Of a stretch of DNA of 64,000 nucleotides, positions 10,501-58,398 are shown in pieces. The notes under the pieces are model-generated. The model was not told the origin of the DNA. It saw only the letters and a program-made list of their open reading frames with translations, and searched no databases. Source of the DNA: Flaccisagitta enflata (Eukaryota). The position numbers and the translations under genes are program-made. The DNA lies in assembly GCA_965153355.1 (NCBI GenBank), contig OZ231126.1, positions 19,964,001-20,028,000 of the forward strand, read 5' to 3'. Positions within the stretch are counted from its first letter, which is position 1. Each line of letters starts with the position of its first letter.

Positions 10501-32438
<21,938 letters not shown>

Positions 32439-49688: not shown

Positions 49689-49691
49689 GTA

Positions 49692-50454
49692 CACCGTCTT
49701 TGAATCGAATTGGCAAATAGTAAACCTTTGTAGCTCCAAAATTACTCGCCCAAAAGCCTTCAAATTTTCAGTGAATGTTGGTAACAACTGACTATTTTTC
49801 ATGCCAAAACTTAGATTTTGATACTGAATAATTTGGGCTCAGTAAAACTAACGGAACATGCCCAATTTTTAGGGCTGAATCTTTTTTTATTGCTTTATTT
49901 GAGGAGACTTGTCTTTATCAATATACAGATGTCTACAAAAATGAGCTAGAACTCCGGGGTTGGTCTCAAATAAAAAGGAACTTTTCAGAGATTATAGATT
50001 TACCAAAAAAATTGAAAAAAGTGGGAGATATTTTGAGGTTATCATTGGTCTTTGACAATCATTGCTAAAATCCAGACTGTCAATTATTTGAAAATCATTC
50101 AAATCTTCATAAATACAATGAAATAATGAAATTTTAAAGTAGAAGTTTTATTCAGGATCTGTAACTCATCATTTTAGACCAACCCCAGGGTTCAAGCTTG
50201 CTTAATCAGGAAAAAAGCAATAAAAAAAAAAAAAAAAACTTCCAAGTATAGCTGGGACAAATTGATTTTTTCCATTAAATTGATAGCTTTCAAATGCTTT
50301 AGTGACCCCCAAACTATTCAGTATTAAAATCTGACTTTTGTCATGACAAAAGGGTCAGTTGTTACCAACATTCACTGAAAATTTGAAGGCTTTTGGGCTA
50401 GTAATTTTGGAGCTAAAAAGGTTTACTATTTGCCATTTCGATTTAAAAACAGTG
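49692..50454. mobile_element. Palindromic MITE with TA TSD (original left end at 49168, split by the previous element)
   Basis: Inverted arms of more than 100 bp (GGCAAATAGTAAACCTTT...GTTGGTAACAACTGAC vs GTCAGTTGTTACCAAC...AAAGGTTTACTATTTGCC); ends TA|CAC ... GTG|TA. Confidence 0.85.
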
Positions 50455-50691
50455 TAAAAAAAATTGTTGTGACCAGCTTACGACTTTTTTCCTCACGGCG
50501 ACAACCGCCATCACTGGAATTTACACTGTTAGGCTTTTGTGGCCTTGGTTTCATCACCGTGATCAACCGATTTTCTGACATTTGGCCATGCCCACTGGCA
50601 AGCGCAACAGTACCCACCATTCTCCAAAGCGTACTTTCCCCTCAATTCCAAATCGTTCCGTTTCAGTTGGTCGGTCATTATTCATTACTAT

Positions 50692-51499
50692 TGTAAAACA
50701 TGATAATTGCATGGTTATGTAAGGTAGTTCAGTGGGATTACTTTAATCATACGAGGACAATCACCCACATACGGACCTGTTCCATATCTTCATTCCTTGT
50801 CCATGTGCGGCTCTGTCACCATTCGACTTCGCAAATGGGACACCATGATTGTCTCGTTGCTCGCTCATCAAATGCGGCCTTGACCTCGACTTGATAATTG
50901 ATTGTTTGACTTCGGATCTGACTTCTGAGTGCTACTTGTGACTCAAGAATAACTTAAAGGGCCTCAGCCTCTTCTGCTCATAGCAAACGGGAGAAAGACA
51001 AATATTGAATTATCGTCGCTTCTTAACTTCTAATTATGCGGTAATAAAAAGGCCTACACACAACACGGTTCCCGACCTCGGTACAACAGTGAATCTAAAG
51101 GGGATAGAACGGATTAAGAATGAGCTCATATAAAATCAACGCTTGGAAATGAAATGGCGAAGAGATACACAATGGGCATCTAACTGCTACAATGATTCAT
51201 CTAAGACGTGGAAAAAGAATGAGCAGATACTTTTAAAACCATTGACTTAAGGACGAGATTTATAACTCATGGAAACTTGAGGATGAGTCACAAAATCTAG
51301 CTACTGAATTAATCGTATGAACGCGATGAATGACTACTGAATAAAATGGAGAAAATGGTCATTCATTTTATGAATACTGTAAAGCTAGTGAATCTTTACC
51401 ACAGGATACGATTGGAAAACGGAGTTCTTAAGATATTACCTTTGCATCCATATCACTCTAATGTCTCTATATCATGGATGCATAATTTGGTGTGTAACA
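50692..51499 (-). repeat. 3' LTR
   Basis: Direct repeat of 56495-57302; preceded on the minus strand by a PPT-like tract (~51500-51516). Confidence 0.95.
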
Positions 51500-52187
51500 G
51501 GGGTCCCTTCTTTCTAAAAAAGCGGACCCCGCGTTCCAGCTCCTTCTCCTTAAAGAAAGTCCGCGAAGATGTAATTGTTCGATGAGCGCCGCCTGTAACT
51601 CCGATGTGTGAATGGAATGAACGTTCATGGGATAAAATGGCCATTGCGGCAATGATGTGAGGCGCCGGATATGAATTGTGTGAAGGTGCAAGGGTCAGGA
51701 CGTATTGCATTTGCTCTTGTGGCATGGTGTTGGATGCGTAATTTTGCTGCATAACGAATAATGAATATGTATGGATGCATCATCGTTCGACTGTGCAAAT
51801 GAGACGCCGGTAGTGATCTTGTATGGATACGTCCTCATTCGACTCCGCAAATGGGACGGCAAAAGCGCGCGTTCTCGTGACAACAGATGTAATTTTCAAT
51901 AGAACAGATTACGGCGATATCGTTTTTTTTTGCTCCTTGTCTGTTGTTTGTTTGTTTGTTTGTTTGTTTGTTTGTTTGTTTGTTTGTTTGTTTGTTTGTT
52001 TGTTTGTTTGTTGTTTGTTTGTTGTTGTGGTGGTTGTTGTTGTGGTTGTTGTTGTGGTTGTTGTTGTGGTTGTTGTTGTTGTTGTTAGTTCACGGGAAGG
52101 AACGGATTCTTTGAGTGAGATGACGAGGTAAAGTGTGTGTGCGTTGGATAAACATGTCCGACATACGGGTATTTTGATGATCACAGG

Positions 52188-52668
52188 GCAACGTTCTACG
52201 TCAAAAACGTGCGCGGATTTGAAAGCAACATTGTACTTCGACAAAGTGCAATTTGCCGAGTCCAACATCCCATTCTCATTTTCCGATATCGTCATCGTCA
52301 TCGTCATCGTTAAAGAATTCCCCCAAATATGGATGGGTCTGAGGGATAGATTCTGTCTTAATTTGGATTATCATAAAGCAACAATCTACGTCGAAAACAT
52401 GCTCGTATTCGAAAGCTTCAGGGCAACATTGTACTTCGACAATGTGCAAAGTGAATATGACATGCCGGTATAATGAATCCGGACACTCAAAATGCGATCA
52501 TACTCCCGTGAAGCGACGCCGTACTTCGACAGCGCGCGCAGCTTAAGTCGCTCCAAGCAACGTTGTACTTCGAAAACGCGCATTTACCCAATCGAAGAGC
52601 AACGCCGTACTTCGACGACGCGCGCGATTTTGATAACTGTAAAGCAGCGTAGTACCTCGACTACATGC
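52188..52668 (-). repeat. Array of eight 25-nt stem-loop motifs (plus-strand consensus GCAACRTTGT-ACTTCG-ACAAYGTGC) with unique spacers
   Basis: Copies start at 52188, 52225, 52378, 52423, 52513, 52557, 52599 and 52644. Confidence 0.85.
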
Positions 52669-53024
52669 ATTTCGCGGGTGAAATAGGACATGAGAAAATA
52701 TAGGGGTGAGGCAAACTTGGTCCGCTGGTGTCTTCAGTGCGTCTATGCTAAATCAGTGAAAGTGCGATCAACAGGAAAACAGTGCAAATTCTAGTCTGAG
52801 TGATGAGGCTACTACAGATGAATTTGTACAGATAAGGTTTTGAACATGTTCGCGTTTAAAAGGTGTGATCGATCGTGAGTGGGAATACATTTCAAAATTG
52901 CGAGGAAAGAACTAGAGGCAGGCTGGTTAAAATGCTTGAGAGTGCTGGTAAGGTCCAATCATCAATTATGACTGGCTCTTTTTACTGGATCGTTTCCCAC
53001 CTTACTCTACATTTCTCACCACAG

Positions 53025-53350
53025 GGAAATATCTTTATCAAGATAAGACCAAGACAACTTGCGTCACCAGGCCAATCAACTTCGTAATTGGTCTTACAAC
53101 AAAGGAAATATCTTCATTAAGACATTGCCCAGACAGATTGCATCAAGAGCCCAATCAACTTCGTAATTGGCTTTACAACGGGAAATATCTTCATCAAGAC
53201 AAGACCCAGACAAAGTGCGTCACGACCAATCAACTTCGTAATTGGCTTCACAGTCAACGGGAAATATCTTCATTAAGACATTGCCCAGACAGATAGTACC
53301 GAGAGCCCAATCAACTTCCTAATTGGCTATACAACGGGAAACATCTTTAT
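53025..53350 (-). repeat. ~78-bp tandem repeat x4, each unit containing a CAATCA-ACTTCG-TAATTG hairpin
   Basis: Hairpins at 53069, 53148, 53224 and 53304 (the last has loop ACTTCC). Confidence 0.85.
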
Positions 53351-53416
53351 TAAAATATCACCCTCACAGATTGCTTTTCAAATCACCTAGTCCATTGACG
53401 ATCTCAACCAGCAAGA

Positions 53417-53795
53417 GGAGGAATCCTTGTATAAGGAAAACTCCAATATGAGCGGTTTCCCGCTTAACTTCTGCGTCATTCTGAACATCTCTCTTCAACA
53501 CAGACATTGCTAGCGGTTTTGGGAGGAATCCTTTTGAAAGGATAACGCCCAAATGAGTGGAAGGAGGAATCCTTTTGTAAGGATAACGCCTATATGCTTG
53601 AAAGGAGGAATCCTTTTGTAAGGATAACGCCAATATGAGTGGAAGGAGGAATCCTTTTGTAAGGATAACGCCAATATGAGTGGACAGAGGAATCCTTTTG
53701 TAAGGATAACGCTAATGTGATTTGTTTCTCGTTACTCTCTTCTATAATGATGTCTTGGCGCTTTTATGAGGAATCCTTTAGTAAGGATAACCCAA
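53417..53795 (-). repeat. ~41-bp repeat x7 with an ATCCTT-N4-AAGGAT hairpin core
   Basis: GAGGAATCCTTTTGTAAGGATAACGCC-type units: five in tandem plus two separated copies. Confidence 0.85.
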
Positions 53796-54311
53796 GATGA
53801 GTTTTCAGGACACTGAACAAATGACTATTGGATACCAAAAAGGCTGTCTAGAATTACCATTTCAGCATTATGTCATCCGTTTTAGGACTCGAATCATGGT
53901 AATCACCCATCCATCGCAAAATGAAACAAAGTCGGGCTCCTTCATTGTCGCTTCTACTGACAAGCTACTTATCCTGGCTGGCCTCTTCCATCACGGCCGT
54001 TGATGGTTGAGAGATTCACTCAATCGCAAACACTTCACATCATTCCATTCTTACACCAACATTAGGAATATGCATCTTGCCCTTCAATTTGACAAAAAGT
54101 TGCTTCACAGTGTCATTAGGCTCTTTAGAGATCTTCCAGATATGAGTTGTCTGCCCTGAACAATGGAGCCATTGAGATCATTTCCATGACTAGTTCTTAC
54201 CATCTATTGATCGAACTACAACTAAACAAATTGAATCTGTACAATTTCGAGCTTGTAATTTGTGGACCTTGAAGTTATTAAATGATGATTGGCCCATATC
54301 CTCTTTGTCCT

Positions 54312-55472
54312 TCACTTTTTTGACTTGCTTTTGCCAGAGCTGCGACCTGCACTGGCTGTGCTTGAGCTTGAGCCCTTTTTTGGTTTGACACTAAGGCCTT
54401 TCATGCCTTCCAAAATGGCCTTAGAGATTGATTCTGTCATGATCTTGGCCCTGGCCTTGATGGCCTCACTGTCACTGTCTTCGTCAGCAGATTGAATGGC
54501 TCTCAGGTCCTCTTCACTTGAACTGCTGGAGCTATCACTCTCTCCACTTGTGGAGCTCCAATCACCCACTCCACAAATTTGGCCAGATTGCCTGTGGTGG
54601 GAACTGTATTGGTGTTCCTTCTCGCAGTTTTTGTTCCTTTCTTGGTCAGTCATTGCTGCACCAGTAAAGGCTACCTGCTTTGACTCTTTGCGTCTCAGCT
54701 CATACTTGATTGCCTGGTTGTAAGCTCTTTCGATTGTTTCCTTGCCAAAGGGAATGCCGGCATCAATGGCCTCTCTCCAATCAAACTCCAACCCGTGCAC
54801 AAACCTGTTGTAGCACTCCATCTCGTATGATCTTGGGTCATTCACAACTGTTGGGCTGTATTTGTGCACATACCCCAACACATTGGCCTTGTACACCTGC
54901 AGAGTCATGCCTGCTGGTCTCTTGTAGGCCCCCAAGTCGCGGACCCAATTCCTGCGAATAACGGGATCCTCCATTTTCTCTTCCAGCTCTTCAATCAAGA
55001 GCTTCCAATCAGAATCCTTGTGTTGACACCCCTGATAAATGGATTGCGCTTCATCCGGTAACTTGAGTGGGAACCAGTTGAGACAAAGCTCATCTGTTCT
55101 CTCTTCTGTGGCCGCGTTGGTAACGGTCTTGACTGCTCTCCTGAACCTCGTCGCATATTCTTGTAGGTCTGCCCCCGGCTTTCCATAAGGAAATTTTTGG
55201 ATAGGAATGTCCGTTGGGACCTTCTCGTAATGCAATGAGGGCCTGCGTGCTGATGCACTCAATGCATCATAATTGTCGGAATGTACCAAACCTCCGGATC
55301 TACTCGTGCTATCACGGTCACCTCCCCCCTGATTCCTACCTGGGGGCGGGGGCGCCGTCGTGCCCTGGGTATCCAAGAGCGCCGTCAATCGCGCGGCAAA
55401 ATCTGGATTTGAGCCGCCTTGAATTTGGGTCTTAATCTGATCCAGATATGCCAGCCATTGTGGATCACCCAT
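54312..55472 (-). CDS. gag: Gag/capsid-like protein, 386 aa
   Basis: Intact single-exon ORF between the LTRs. Helical capsid-like pattern (LNWFPLKLPDEAQSIY...DWKLLIEELEEKM...MTLQVY...RFVHGL...IERAYNQA) typical of Ty3/gypsy Gag; no CCHC knuckle. Confidence 0.8.
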   Translation of the reverse strand: MGDPQWLAYLDQIKTQIQGGSNPDFAARLTALLDTQGTTAPPPPGRNQGGGDRDSTSRSGGLVHSDNYDALSASARRPSLHYEKVPTDIPIQKFPYGKPGADLQEYATRFRRAVKTVTNAATEERTDELCLNWFPLKLPDEAQSIYQGCQHKDSDWKLLIEELEEKMEDPVIRRNWVRDLGAYKRPAGMTLQVYKANVLGYVHKYSPTVVNDPRSYEMECYNRFVHGLEFDWREAIDAGIPFGKETIERAYNQAIKYELRRKESKQVAFTGAAMTDQERNKNCEKEHQYSSHHRQSGQICGVGDWSSTSGESDSSSSSSEEDLRAIQSADEDSDSEAIKARAKIMTESISKAILEGMKGLSVKPKKGSSSSTASAGRSSGKSKSKK

Positions 55473-56494
55473 GATGATTAATTGATGTACGGTCTTACCA
55501 AGTAATTGTCAGTGCACTTCACTACTTTTGGGTGAAGCAATCAGGAATAAAAGGCACGTCTTTTTGATGGGGATGCGAGTCACTCCTTTTATGTGACTGA
55601 AGAAAGGTATAAAAGCACTCCCCTCGCTTGACCGTTCGCAAGTTAAAAACCAGTTAAAATCTCTCCCACACAAGTTTTTATAAGAACATTTGTAACCAAT
55701 GTGTTGGTTACTGGTGAAAGTTTAAGAACGTTTACAGCTGAGCTGTATTGGGGATGCCAAATTGAACTTCACACTTGCTTGAATCAGAGTTCTCTTCTTC
55801 ATCAACATTTGCTATGCATAGGCCTTTACCGCAAGAAAATGTTCTCTTAATTAAACTCCCGTGCTATGATACAACGCCGAATTTGAAAGAGTTTTTGAAA
55901 GTGTTTTTGGCAAATCCTTGATTCCGCTTCCGCTAAACTGCACAAGGGTAGCTCTGACCTGCGCGCCTCCCAAGTTTGCTGGCTTGCTTCTTTCGAAATA
56001 GGAAGTACCGTGAAATGGAAGAGAAAGTACTGTCCAGAATGTTGTTCCTATTTAGATGCCGCTTCCATCCTAAAAGCGCAGGAAACCCTCTAGGACTTCC
56101 ACGAATGACGGCCACTGGCCAAAATGGGCCACTATCATATGGAAATGTGTTGAAAGTGAAAGTTGAAATAAACCGAGATCAACCGAAAAGCTTAGCTTCC
56201 TCTTGAAGCTCTGCGCGCTCCAAATGGCAAGTAGGCACATCCAGAGTTCACCGTCCAGAACTCAATAGGTTTTTCCATAAGGTTCGATCACTCATCGCTT
56301 GATCTTTGAAACTATGACCTACTTGATCCAAATACTGAAGAGAACTCAGGGTCTTGCAATAAGAACTGGGCAAGACTGGTTAACCACCAGAGGGAAGTGG
56401 CTCCTCATGCCAGAGAGAGAGGCAGTCAGATAACATGTCGTATTTGGTCAACATCCACGGCAGCTTACCATGGATAATTCGGCAGATGTACCAT

Positions 56495-57302
56495 TGTAAA
56501 ACATGATAATTGCATGGTTATGTAAGGTAGTTCAGTGGGATTACTTTAATCATACGAGGACAATCACCCACATACGGACCTGTTCCATATCTTCATTCTT
56601 TGTCCATGTGCGGCTCTGTCACCATTCGACTTCGCAAATGGGACACCATGATTGTCTCGTTGCTCGCTCATCAAATGCGGCCTTGACCTCGACTTGATAA
56701 TTGATTGTTTGACTTCGGATCTGACTTCTGAGTGCTACTTGTGACTCAAGAATAACTTAAAGGGCCTCAGCCTCTTCTGCTCATAGCAAACGGGAGAAAG
56801 ACAAATATTGAATTATCGTCGCTTCTTAACTTCTAATTATGCGGTAATAAAAAGGCCTACACACAACACGGTTCTCGACCTCGGTACAACAGTGAATCTA
56901 AAGGGGATAGAACGGATTAAGAATGAGCTCATATAAAATCAACGCTTGGAAATGAAATGGCGAAGAGATACACAATGGGCATCTAACTGCTACAATGATT
57001 CATCTAAGACGTGGAAAAAGAATGAGCAGATACTTTTAAAACCATTGACTTAAGGACGAGATTTATAACTCATGGAAACTTGAGGATGAGTCACAAAATC
57101 TAGCTACTGAATTAATCGTATGAACGCGATGAATGACTACTGAATAAAATGGAGAAAATGGTCATTCATTTTATGAATACTGTAAAGCTAGTGAATCTTT
57201 ACCACAGGATACGATTGGAAAACGGAGTTCTTAAGATATTACCTTTGCATCCATATCACTCTAATGTCTCTATATCATGGATGCATAATTTGGTGTGTAA
57301 CA
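56495..57302 (-). repeat. 5' LTR
   Basis: Direct repeat of 50692-51499; TATAAAT on the minus strand at 57067-57061. Confidence 0.95.
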
Positions 57303-58398
57303 CTATTCATTAGCTTCACGAGTAGCTTACTTGTACAGTTAAAAATACCGACCTGCAAAATGGATAACAAGTAATGCGGGTTAGAACATCGTCGCGGATG
57401 AGTGGACAGGGGCGCACAACACCCCCCACATGCCTACCCCCCCCCCCCACTCCCACACACACACACAGGTACAGGATCAATATTCGCGTTCCTAAACTTT
57501 TAGATTCATTAGTTACGGACAGGCCATGGATAGACCAACGGACAGAAGGACGGAGGGAATGATGGACAGACTTACGGATGGACCGATGGACGGACAAAGC
57601 TCCTTGTAGAGTCACGAGTCCGCGACTAAAAAAACACGATTTACTACAATGAAAAGAAAAAAAACTTCAGCTTTACCACCGGCTATAAGACCGACATACG
57701 CCTGGATTTAATGGACTTTTTTCAGTCTTTTGAACACAATTTTATTCCTTCTGTAATTTGATCTTCAATTTTATTTTTTAAGTCTTGGTAACGCATCAGT
57801 AACCTGGATAACCAGTGTTCAGGGCTATTTACTTACGTATCAATGTATCTACGTATGCTATTCGCATGTGCGTTTCAAAATTTTGAATGTATGCATACTA
57901 TCCAAAGGTAGTTTTAAGTTTCTACTCGATGACGATTTAGATTGCAACAACGATTGACCACGATAGACGGACAATCCAGCCCGGTAACGGTGCAATGGCA
58001 ACAGCAAACAGAGCCGAGGGCCTAGGGCACTCAAACCCCTACCCAGACAACTCACCCTTTCATTTTAACGACCCATTCCACCCTCCCAATTTTGCCTACC
58101 CTCTCCCCCCAAAGCTCTCATTCAAAGTACGAACCCCCCTCACCTTCTCGGTCCCGCCCCACGGAAAAAAAAACCTCAATAAAAACATTTATTTTTGGTT
58201 GGTATCGAGCAAGAACATGGAATTTGAGGTTCATTTCCTCATCTCATCTTCTCTTTTTTCATTTCTTGTTTAATTTTCTTTCTTTTATACTGATTTCCAA
58301 ATTCACCCTTTACTTTCCTGGTCATTTGTTCCTTTCTTTCATTTTTCTTCCTATTTTTTTTTCTTGTTTTTCCTTGTTTGTTTGCTGCTTTCTCATTT

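Follow-up and report, generated by a model that had tools for sequence, protein, structure and literature searches.

Why would a retrotransposon in which only a gag gene can be recognised carry, behind that gene, a long row of small RNA hairpins that share a loop and not a stem? The question is raised by a 64,000-nt stretch of the genome of Flaccisagitta enflata (the window: assembly GCA_965153355.1, contig OZ231126.1, positions 19,964,001 to 20,028,000), whose minus strand encodes a 6.6-kb long terminal repeat (LTR) retrotransposon with an array of eight such hairpins at 52188-52668; all coordinates are those of the plus strand of the window. The hairpin class is a real, element-specific structure of the sense-strand RNA, and a chance origin of the set is excluded. 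Very probably the structure is also maintained by selection, and we consider it likely that the hairpins together form a docking array for a protein. Packaging as the specific function of the array is a more tentative proposal, and the full statement, in which bulged sense-strand hairpins dock a protein for encapsidation of the RNA, has in our estimate a probability of roughly 0.4. We infer that the array is transcribed, that it binds protein, and which protein that would be.

The array has the form GCR-YNNNKU-[YGANGU]-ASNNNG-Y-YGC on the minus strand, and its units were scored as a 3-bp stem, a one-base 3' bulge, a 6-bp stem and a hexaloop. The eight 25-nt motifs of the original prediction were all located: h1 at 52644-52668, h2 at 52599-52623, h3 at 52557-52581, h4 at 52513-52537, h5 at 52423-52447, h6 at 52378-52402, h7 at 52225-52249 and h8 at 52188-52212, all on the minus strand. 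Their loops are those that it had listed, with CGAAGU present in five units, and CGACGU, CGAGGU and UGACGU present once apiece. The bases that do not vary read GC...GUCGAAGUAC...GUUGC, and the bulge, six pairs below the loop, is U in seven of the eight units. The spacers, taken from h8 to h1, measure 12, 128, 20, 65, 19, 17 and 20 nt; the predicted range of 12-128 nt is thus correct, but the description of the spacers as unrelated does not hold for all of them, since the h8-h7 and h6-h5 blocks are 76% identical by BLAST. A repeat finder groups seven of the units into one family and assigns the eighth to a second family.

Inspection of the stems on the sense strand, where the hairpins had been proposed to form, shows that 69 of the 72 stem cells pair (95.8%; 60 Watson-Crick and nine G-U), the remainder comprising two U-U and one U-C but no A-C. 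Pairing is kept through compensating changes, as had been claimed: five of the nine pairs vary on both sides around a conserved loop. In 500 column shuffles neither the paired share nor the covariation score of the real alignment was ever reached, and controls in which the 3' partner was slid by one to three columns had 29-65% of their cells paired. A larger set of 14 cores (11 of them distinct), drawn from the array and from two further hairpin types of the element described below (the 79-nt and LTR types), gives the same picture, with 95.5% of 66 cells paired, five of six pairs varying on both sides, no match in 500 shuffles, and slid controls at 35-44% (73% at +3, with only three pairs). 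The closing pair differs by type across these 14 cores and is U-A, A-U or G-C. A conserved loop and shape on stems that are free to change in compensation are the signature of a site for an RNA-binding protein that recognises loop and shape.

The wobble pairs indicate which strand is read. Mismatches of the C-A kind on the plus strand had been predicted to become G-U on the minus strand, and this is what the count of nine G-U and no A-C represents. Several of the wobbles resemble C-to-U changes at CpG sites. CpG decay strikes both DNA strands, however, and A-C would therefore be expected as often as G-U on the sense strand; the imbalance points to selection acting on the minus-strand RNA, or on its equivalent in single-stranded DNA. 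It bears directly on the possibility that the motifs act in duplex or cruciform DNA, either as an array of sites for a DNA-binding protein or by shaping chromatin through their dyad symmetry. The array is rich in CpG, its short, regularly spaced motifs contain bases that never vary, and the gypsy element of Drosophila carries an array of insulator sites in its untranslated part. Duplex sites conserve sequence rather than complementarity, however, whereas the arms of the array vary and co-vary; the centre of the motif is not palindromic; and the wobble asymmetry would be meaningless in a duplex. We give a duplex-DNA function very little weight.

The CpG content was also compared as such. The observed/expected ratio is 1.76 in the array and 2.28 within its hairpins, as against 0.51 in gag, 0.78 in the whole internal region and 0.91 in the whole window; across gag, the 5' untranslated part and the LTR it ranges from 0.51 to 0.89.

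The hairpins are also specific to the element. The 64-kb window was scanned for YGANGT loops whose stems pair at five or more of six positions. This yielded 17 matches on the minus strand and two on the plus strand, and 13 of the 17 lie inside the 6.6-kb element; 500 dinucleotide shuffles of the element contain 0.45 such hairpins on average and never more than 3. The covariance model that had been suggested, trained on the eight copies, scores those eight at 33-46 bits and everything else in the 64 kb at no more than 10.3 bits with filters off. On its sense strand the element has 12 instances of the word CGAAGT, where 1.6 are expected, and on its antisense strand it has none; the word is also the commonest loop (n = 10) among the 210 hairpins with six-base loops on the sense strand. 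Words of the element also occur in marine metagenomes. A hairpin pattern scanned against viral contigs gave nine single matches, at or below a rough chance estimate. A stricter pattern of loop plus flanks was matched in metagenome contigs at 14 loci, each of which had one match and no second hairpin. Of the 42 free stem positions at these loci 16 pair (38%), as expected at random, and the loci served as a null control only. The three matches to the same pattern in the window pair at eight of nine free positions.

The array is not the whole of the set. The original prediction had drawn its boundary at 52188-52668, but eight further hairpins of the same loop class are found elsewhere in the element, all on the minus strand. 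Four lie in a 79-nt tandem repeat of 4.5 units (53024-53374) that carries the hairpin CCAAUUA-[CGAAGU]-UGAUUGG in each unit, with cores at 53073-53090, 53152-53169, 53227-53244 and 53308-53325, the last with the loop GGAAGU. Each LTR carries one, GUC-CCAUUUG-[CGAAGU]-CGAAUGG-U-GAC, at 56617-56645 in the 5' copy (-11.7 kcal/mol) and at 50814-50842 in the 3' copy; it begins about 658 nt into the 808-bp LTR and consists of a 4-bp lower stem (GUC...GAC arms in the motif), a 3' U bulge and a 7-bp upper stem. The last two are 52-nt repeat units near the polypurine tract (51759-51858), which alignment and folds identify as diverged copies of the LTR hairpin: unit b folds well (5 bp, a 3' A bulge, 6 bp and the loop CGGAGU), and unit a is degenerate, with the loop CACAGU. 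A one-base 3' bulge beneath an upper stem of 6-7 bp is common to the array, LTR and 52-nt types. A pair across the loop between positions 1 and 5 is possible in 15 of the 16 loops (14 C-G and one U-G), with G5 invariant and hence no covariation; the exception is the GGAAGU loop at 53314-53319, in which position 1 is G and cannot form it. In all, the element carries about 14-16 hairpins of the YGANGU class.

Several unpaired GAAGUC and CGAGGUC words (CAGAAGUCAGAUCCGAAGUCAAAC, AAGUCGAGGUCAAGG), which resemble the loop plus its 3' neighbour, stand immediately upstream of the hairpin in each LTR (56660-56745 and 50857-50942, minus strand). A second, different hairpin family is found at 53440-53800 on the minus strand: AUCCUU-[4 nt]-AAGGAU, with UUCCUCC behind it, is present seven times, five times within a 41-nt tandem repeat. 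Its 6-bp stem is constant and its loop varies (ACAA, UCAA, ACUA, AUAC), the opposite of what is seen in the CGAAGU hairpins.

The composition of the loops allows a further reading, in which they pair with RNA. In the array type the closing U followed by CGAA gives UCGAA, which is complementary to the UUCGA that forms part of the consensus of the tRNA T-loop, and the hairpins might then hold the primer tRNA or bridge two genomic RNAs. Contacts between primer and template outside the primer-binding site are known from retroviruses, Ty1 and Ty3, and the 5' LTR hairpin sits 123 nt upstream of the putative primer-binding site of the element. Such pairing would leave the invariant G5 and U6 unexplained, however, and position 4 varies. 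Only the array type closes its loop with U, the 79-nt type having A and the LTR type G; the full complement, ACUUCG, is absent from the sense strand of the element; and the loop is not self-complementary. We attach hardly any credence to this reading.

Many diverged copies of the element exist. Logan contigs from three DNA runs (62, 94 and 48 contigs) align to 52100-53020, with likenesses that run from 99% or more down to under 90%. Among the 40 differences between copies that are listed out of 180, 24 fall within 52188-52668, and these comprise six in 200 hairpin bases versus 18 in 281 spacer bases. No pair is broken by any of the six hairpin differences listed: three swap G-U and G-C, two give a standard pair where h3 and h6 are mismatched in the window, and one turns the loop of h1 into CGAAGU. 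These listed differences support constraint on the hairpins across copies. Other copies also contain joints that skip or repeat stretches between hairpins, so the number of units varies among copies.

That variation is part of the case for a functionless origin, in which tandem-repeat expansion, common in the untranslated parts of LTR retrotransposons, was seeded by the LTR hairpin and the palindromes persist because the copies are young. The 41-, 52- and 79-nt tandem repeats fill the region together with microsatellites, unit number differs between copies, three of the eight array hairpins are imperfect in the copy of the window, and the z-scores of folding (given below) are unremarkable. Satellite DNA is reported to arise frequently from tandem repeats derived from retrotransposons (PMC7004042). 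What decides against this explanation is that youth fails to account for stems that differ at five of six positions and yet remain paired around an unchanged loop. Nor does it explain why wobbles of one kind only are seen in the array, or why the listed differences are fewer in hairpins than in spacers and never break a pair. We therefore regard functionless expansion as improbable.

The original prediction of a gag-only LTR element as host of the array is borne out by two LTRs, a target duplication, a Gag protein of capsid fold and a pol gene that was looked for and not found. The LTRs, each of 808 bp with TGT...ACA ends, occupy 56495-57302 (5') and 50692-51499 (3') on the minus strand and were located by a BLAST self-match of 814 nt with 99.63% identity and three differences (partner 50686-51499). 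They are flanked by a 4-bp target duplication, ATAG, at 57303-57306 and 50688-50691. Because the element sits in a short tandem duplication (TAATGAATA twice; 50688-50700 and 57303-57312), the LTR end seems 6 nt longer in BLAST. One base after the 5' LTR lies a putative primer-binding site that starts with TGG (56478-56493, minus strand); a matching tRNA was not identified, and the 64-kb window contains no tRNA gene. A polypurine tract, AGAAAGAAGGGA, is found at 51504-51515 (minus strand), 4 nt before the 3' LTR. The TGG stretch after one LTR and the polypurine tract before the other establish the minus strand as the sense strand. An inverted repeat, GGGGUCC...GGGACCCC (51500-51530), adjoins the 3' LTR and holds the polypurine tract in its loop. 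The untranslated part further contains a microsatellite block at 51944-52086 (minus strand), which reads (AAAC)n and (AAC)n in the sense direction.

The only long open reading frame (ORF) of the element encodes a Gag of 386 amino acids (54312-55472, minus strand; start at 55472, stop at 54312), with a two-domain capsid fold and a Ser/Lys-rich C-terminal tail. Gag itself has no Pfam match. It has 24 close relatives in a word index and 237 by HMMER, and one of 25 relatives scanned (P0021) passes the Pfam family Retrotrans_gag. An AlphaFold model has a mean predicted local distance difference test (pLDDT) score of 75.6, with a core (residues 80-270) above 90. The best Foldseek matches of the model are the capsid-type proteins of murine leukemia virus (MLV), dArc1, Copia and Arc, at weak E values of 0.04 at best. 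By VIA-align, residues 77-275 give Z scores of 9.4 with the Copia capsid and 8.8 with the MLV capsid (CA), values in a range (below about 13) that can be generic for helical proteins; all 50 structural matches listed are retroviral or retrotransposon capsids. Neighbours of Gag in the ESM Atlas are Retrotrans_gag clusters. A sequence search of the Protein Data Bank with a Gag profile returned nothing relevant, and a Gag search of viral contigs gave no match.

Protease, reverse transcriptase, RNase H and integrase are absent: none of 19 further sense-strand ORFs of at least 50 amino acids matches a pol domain at E values up to 0.1, and no other ATG-initiated ORF of at least 100 amino acids has a family match. 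Among homologues of Gag, no longer one resembling a Gag-Pol was found, which is weak evidence. To judge by these features, the element is a young, gag-only, non-autonomous LTR retrotransposon that would be unable to move without a helper. Its LTRs are nearly identical and it has no pol, so it must recently have used such a helper. A 66-residue frame in the 5' untranslated part (55850-56047, minus strand) has a sub-threshold match to THAP (E 0.0033, with 18.6 bits where the cut-off is 23.9), which is probably due to chance.

These properties suggest a model for how the array arose and what it does. A single hairpin in the LTR was probably the founding unit, which would then have been copied and amplified between the gag stop and the polypurine tract, giving two LTR-type copies, four in the 79-nt repeat and eight in the array, so that one genomic RNA would carry about 14-16 sites. 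Selection would retain loop and pairing and not the sequence of the stems; the reader would be an RNA-binding protein specific for loop and shape; and many sites in a row would provide avidity for a protein that multimerises. The array may in this way mark the pol-less RNA for capture by assembling Gag, whether the element's own or the Gag/nucleocapsid of a helper, the helper being an autonomous element that supplies protease, reverse transcriptase and integrase. We prefer packaging over other uses of a docked protein because an element without pol must be co-packaged with the enzymes of its helper, because the probable ancestral copy lies in the LTR with further copies beside the polypurine tract, and because the number of sites varies between copies. 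Non-autonomous elements usually share their LTR and polypurine-tract regions with their helpers.

Several observations weigh against this model. In retroviruses the known packaging signals are in the 5' leader; here the array is 3' of gag, at 1.6-2.1 kb behind it, one copy is in the LTR upstream of the primer-binding site, and no YGANGU hairpin occurs between the primer-binding site and gag (55473-56488). The Gag translation contains no CCHC zinc knuckle, and there is thus no obvious module for direct recognition of the loops. In the copy of the window h3, h6 and h7 have one mismatch each, and h5/h7 and h6/h8 are duplicates, so that the eight units amount to about six independent stems. All of the covariation derives from paralogous units of one element and from the partial list of differences in other copies. 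Calculated folding energies provide weak backing. Folded alone, five of the eight array units take the proposed fold as their minimum-energy structure, and single hairpins range from -2.1 to -11.5 kcal/mol, with z from +1.0 to -1.8; for the whole 571-nt region, z is -1.12 in sense and -0.37 in antisense orientation. In a 661-nt context without a span limit, h5 and h8 alone reach a high predicted probability. A span limit of 40 nt brings h2, h4, h5 and h8 to 0.89-0.98, with h1 at 0.28 and h3, h6 and h7 near 0. In silico, the similar arms of repeated units can pair between units. As to transcription, one RNA run yielded a single contig, of under 90% likeness, at 52736-52862, outside the array, and sense-strand single-stranded DNA from reverse transcription would give the same signals as RNA.

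Both the position of the array and the make-up of Gag would suit a different reader, namely a host RNA-binding protein that uses the hairpins as a signal for export, stability, localisation or translation of the unspliced RNA. Simple retroviruses and LTR elements carry export or stability elements between their last ORF and the 3' LTR, and multimerised export elements work better. The array occupies the corresponding place, which is also that of elements of the constitutive transport element (CTE) type, with the gag stop (54312) on one side and the polypurine tract (51504-51515) on the other; several different hairpin arrays share this untranslated part; Gag has no recognisable module for specific RNA binding; and the conservation of structure and loop fits a host factor equally well. 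The CTE of Mason-Pfizer monkey virus and the export elements of intracisternal A-particle (IAP) and MusD retroelements resemble the array further in presenting a repeated motif in structured RNA that serves an unspliced retroelement RNA. They consist of long extended stems with internal loops, however, whereas the arrays here are built of 25-nt hairpins, and there is no match to them in sequence or in Rfam. More generally, no Rfam match links the hairpins to an export, stability or localisation element, and a literature search gave no binding partner for the loop. Export would also leave unexplained the LTR copy and the two copies beside the polypurine tract, and the high and variable number of sites is better suited to competition for a limiting viral protein. 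We consider a host factor the best rival to packaging, and an unlikely one.

Comparison with known systems places the packaging model among cis-acting, protein-binding hairpins of retroelement RNAs; it is known in kind, and the array as a class was not found described. The original prediction had not recognised the array as a described element, and a cmscan search of Rfam 15 over 50500-57000 on both strands at E values up to 10 agrees: its sole match is to an unrelated snoRNA (E 4.4), with none to the iron-responsive element (IRE), to the trans-activation response element (TAR) of human immunodeficiency virus (HIV) or to the epsilon signal of hepatitis B virus. A literature search, judged by its search results alone, likewise found no description of such an array of hairpins.

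The closest likeness in layout is to IREs, five of which stand in the 3' untranslated region of the transferrin receptor. There, too, several small bulged hairpins combine variable stems with a conserved hexaloop in which bases 1 and 5 can pair. Each of those hairpins is a site for the same protein, as the present ones would be. The IRE has the loop CAGUGN and a 5' C bulge five pairs below it, but the present hairpins have YGANGU and a 3' bulge six or seven pairs below, so that loop sequence, side of the bulge and distance of the bulge all differ; the carrier here is a retrotransposon, and an Rfam match to the IRE is absent. HIV-1 TAR is likewise a bulged hexaloop hairpin inside an LTR, and is in this respect similar to the copy at 56617-56645. 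It has a three-base bulge and the loop CUGGGA, however, is single, and stands at the very start of R.

Packaging signals of retroviruses and retrotransposons, in particular as viewed in the 'dispersed packaging signal' model, resemble the set in that a shared loop motif is presented on differing stems. In that model many weak sites act jointly and are read by the capsid or nucleocapsid protein, as may be the case here. Retroviral packaging signals are few and in the 5' leader, but 14 of the 16 copies in the element lie far 3' of gag. The operators of phages MS2 and PP7 are short bulged hairpins that the capsid protein reads through loop and bulge, and engineered arrays of 6-24 such operators, used as RNA tags of high avidity, resemble the natural array in layout. 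The phages themselves have one operator each, their loops and the side of the bulge differ from those seen here, and the arrays are man-made.

This likeness allows a more specific form of the packaging model, which we put forward as a doubtful possibility: the array could be the natural counterpart of an engineered MS2/PP7 tag, in which a parasite multiplied a hairpin read by the capsid of its helper from one to about 16 per RNA and out-competes the RNA of the helper for encapsidation, the varying number of units being the trace of an ongoing race for avidity. If this were true, the YGANGU loop with its 3' bulge would be half of a new hairpin-protein recognition pair, in a Gag lineage without a zinc knuckle. 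Tandem repeats in the untranslated parts of LTR retrotransposons offer a last comparison, being repeat-rich and variable in unit number like the region studied here. They are described as DNA repeats (PMC7004042), apparently without a conserved loop on covarying stems.

Other candidates were dropped. The loop does not fit a heat-shock or B-box-like DNA motif, the Smaug recognition loop (CNGG), a sarcin-ricin or GNRA loop, or a U1-binding site. A coding reading of the array was set aside on account of its variable spacing and the lack of an ORF family.

The way in which non-autonomous LTR elements obtain the machinery of their helpers has been outlined in only a few families of plants and yeasts, and to our knowledge the RNA signals that take part in it are almost unknown in animals. 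The present motif is compact (25 nt, with an invariant loop and free stems) and occurs in many copies in an abundant and recently active element of a marine animal. It thus offers an experimental handle: the motif can serve as bait for the binding protein, compensated stems would test the structure, and the covariance model can be used to find the helper family and other carriers. Were the binder Gag, the hairpins would constitute a packaging code of repeated loops in a retrotransposon, with avidity achieved naturally by multiplication of a hairpin. Were it a host factor, they would represent a new class of cis-element for export or stability.

The surroundings of the element, which suggest an animal genome, have features of their own. 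Just outside the 3' LTR lies an inverted duplication of about 159 nt with 89% identity (49690-49846 and 50298-50456). At some distance, an ORF of 998 amino acids (22508-25504, plus strand) encodes many C2H2 zinc fingers together with long runs of Gln, His, Ser and Ala, and microsatellites are numerous throughout the surrounding 64-kb window.

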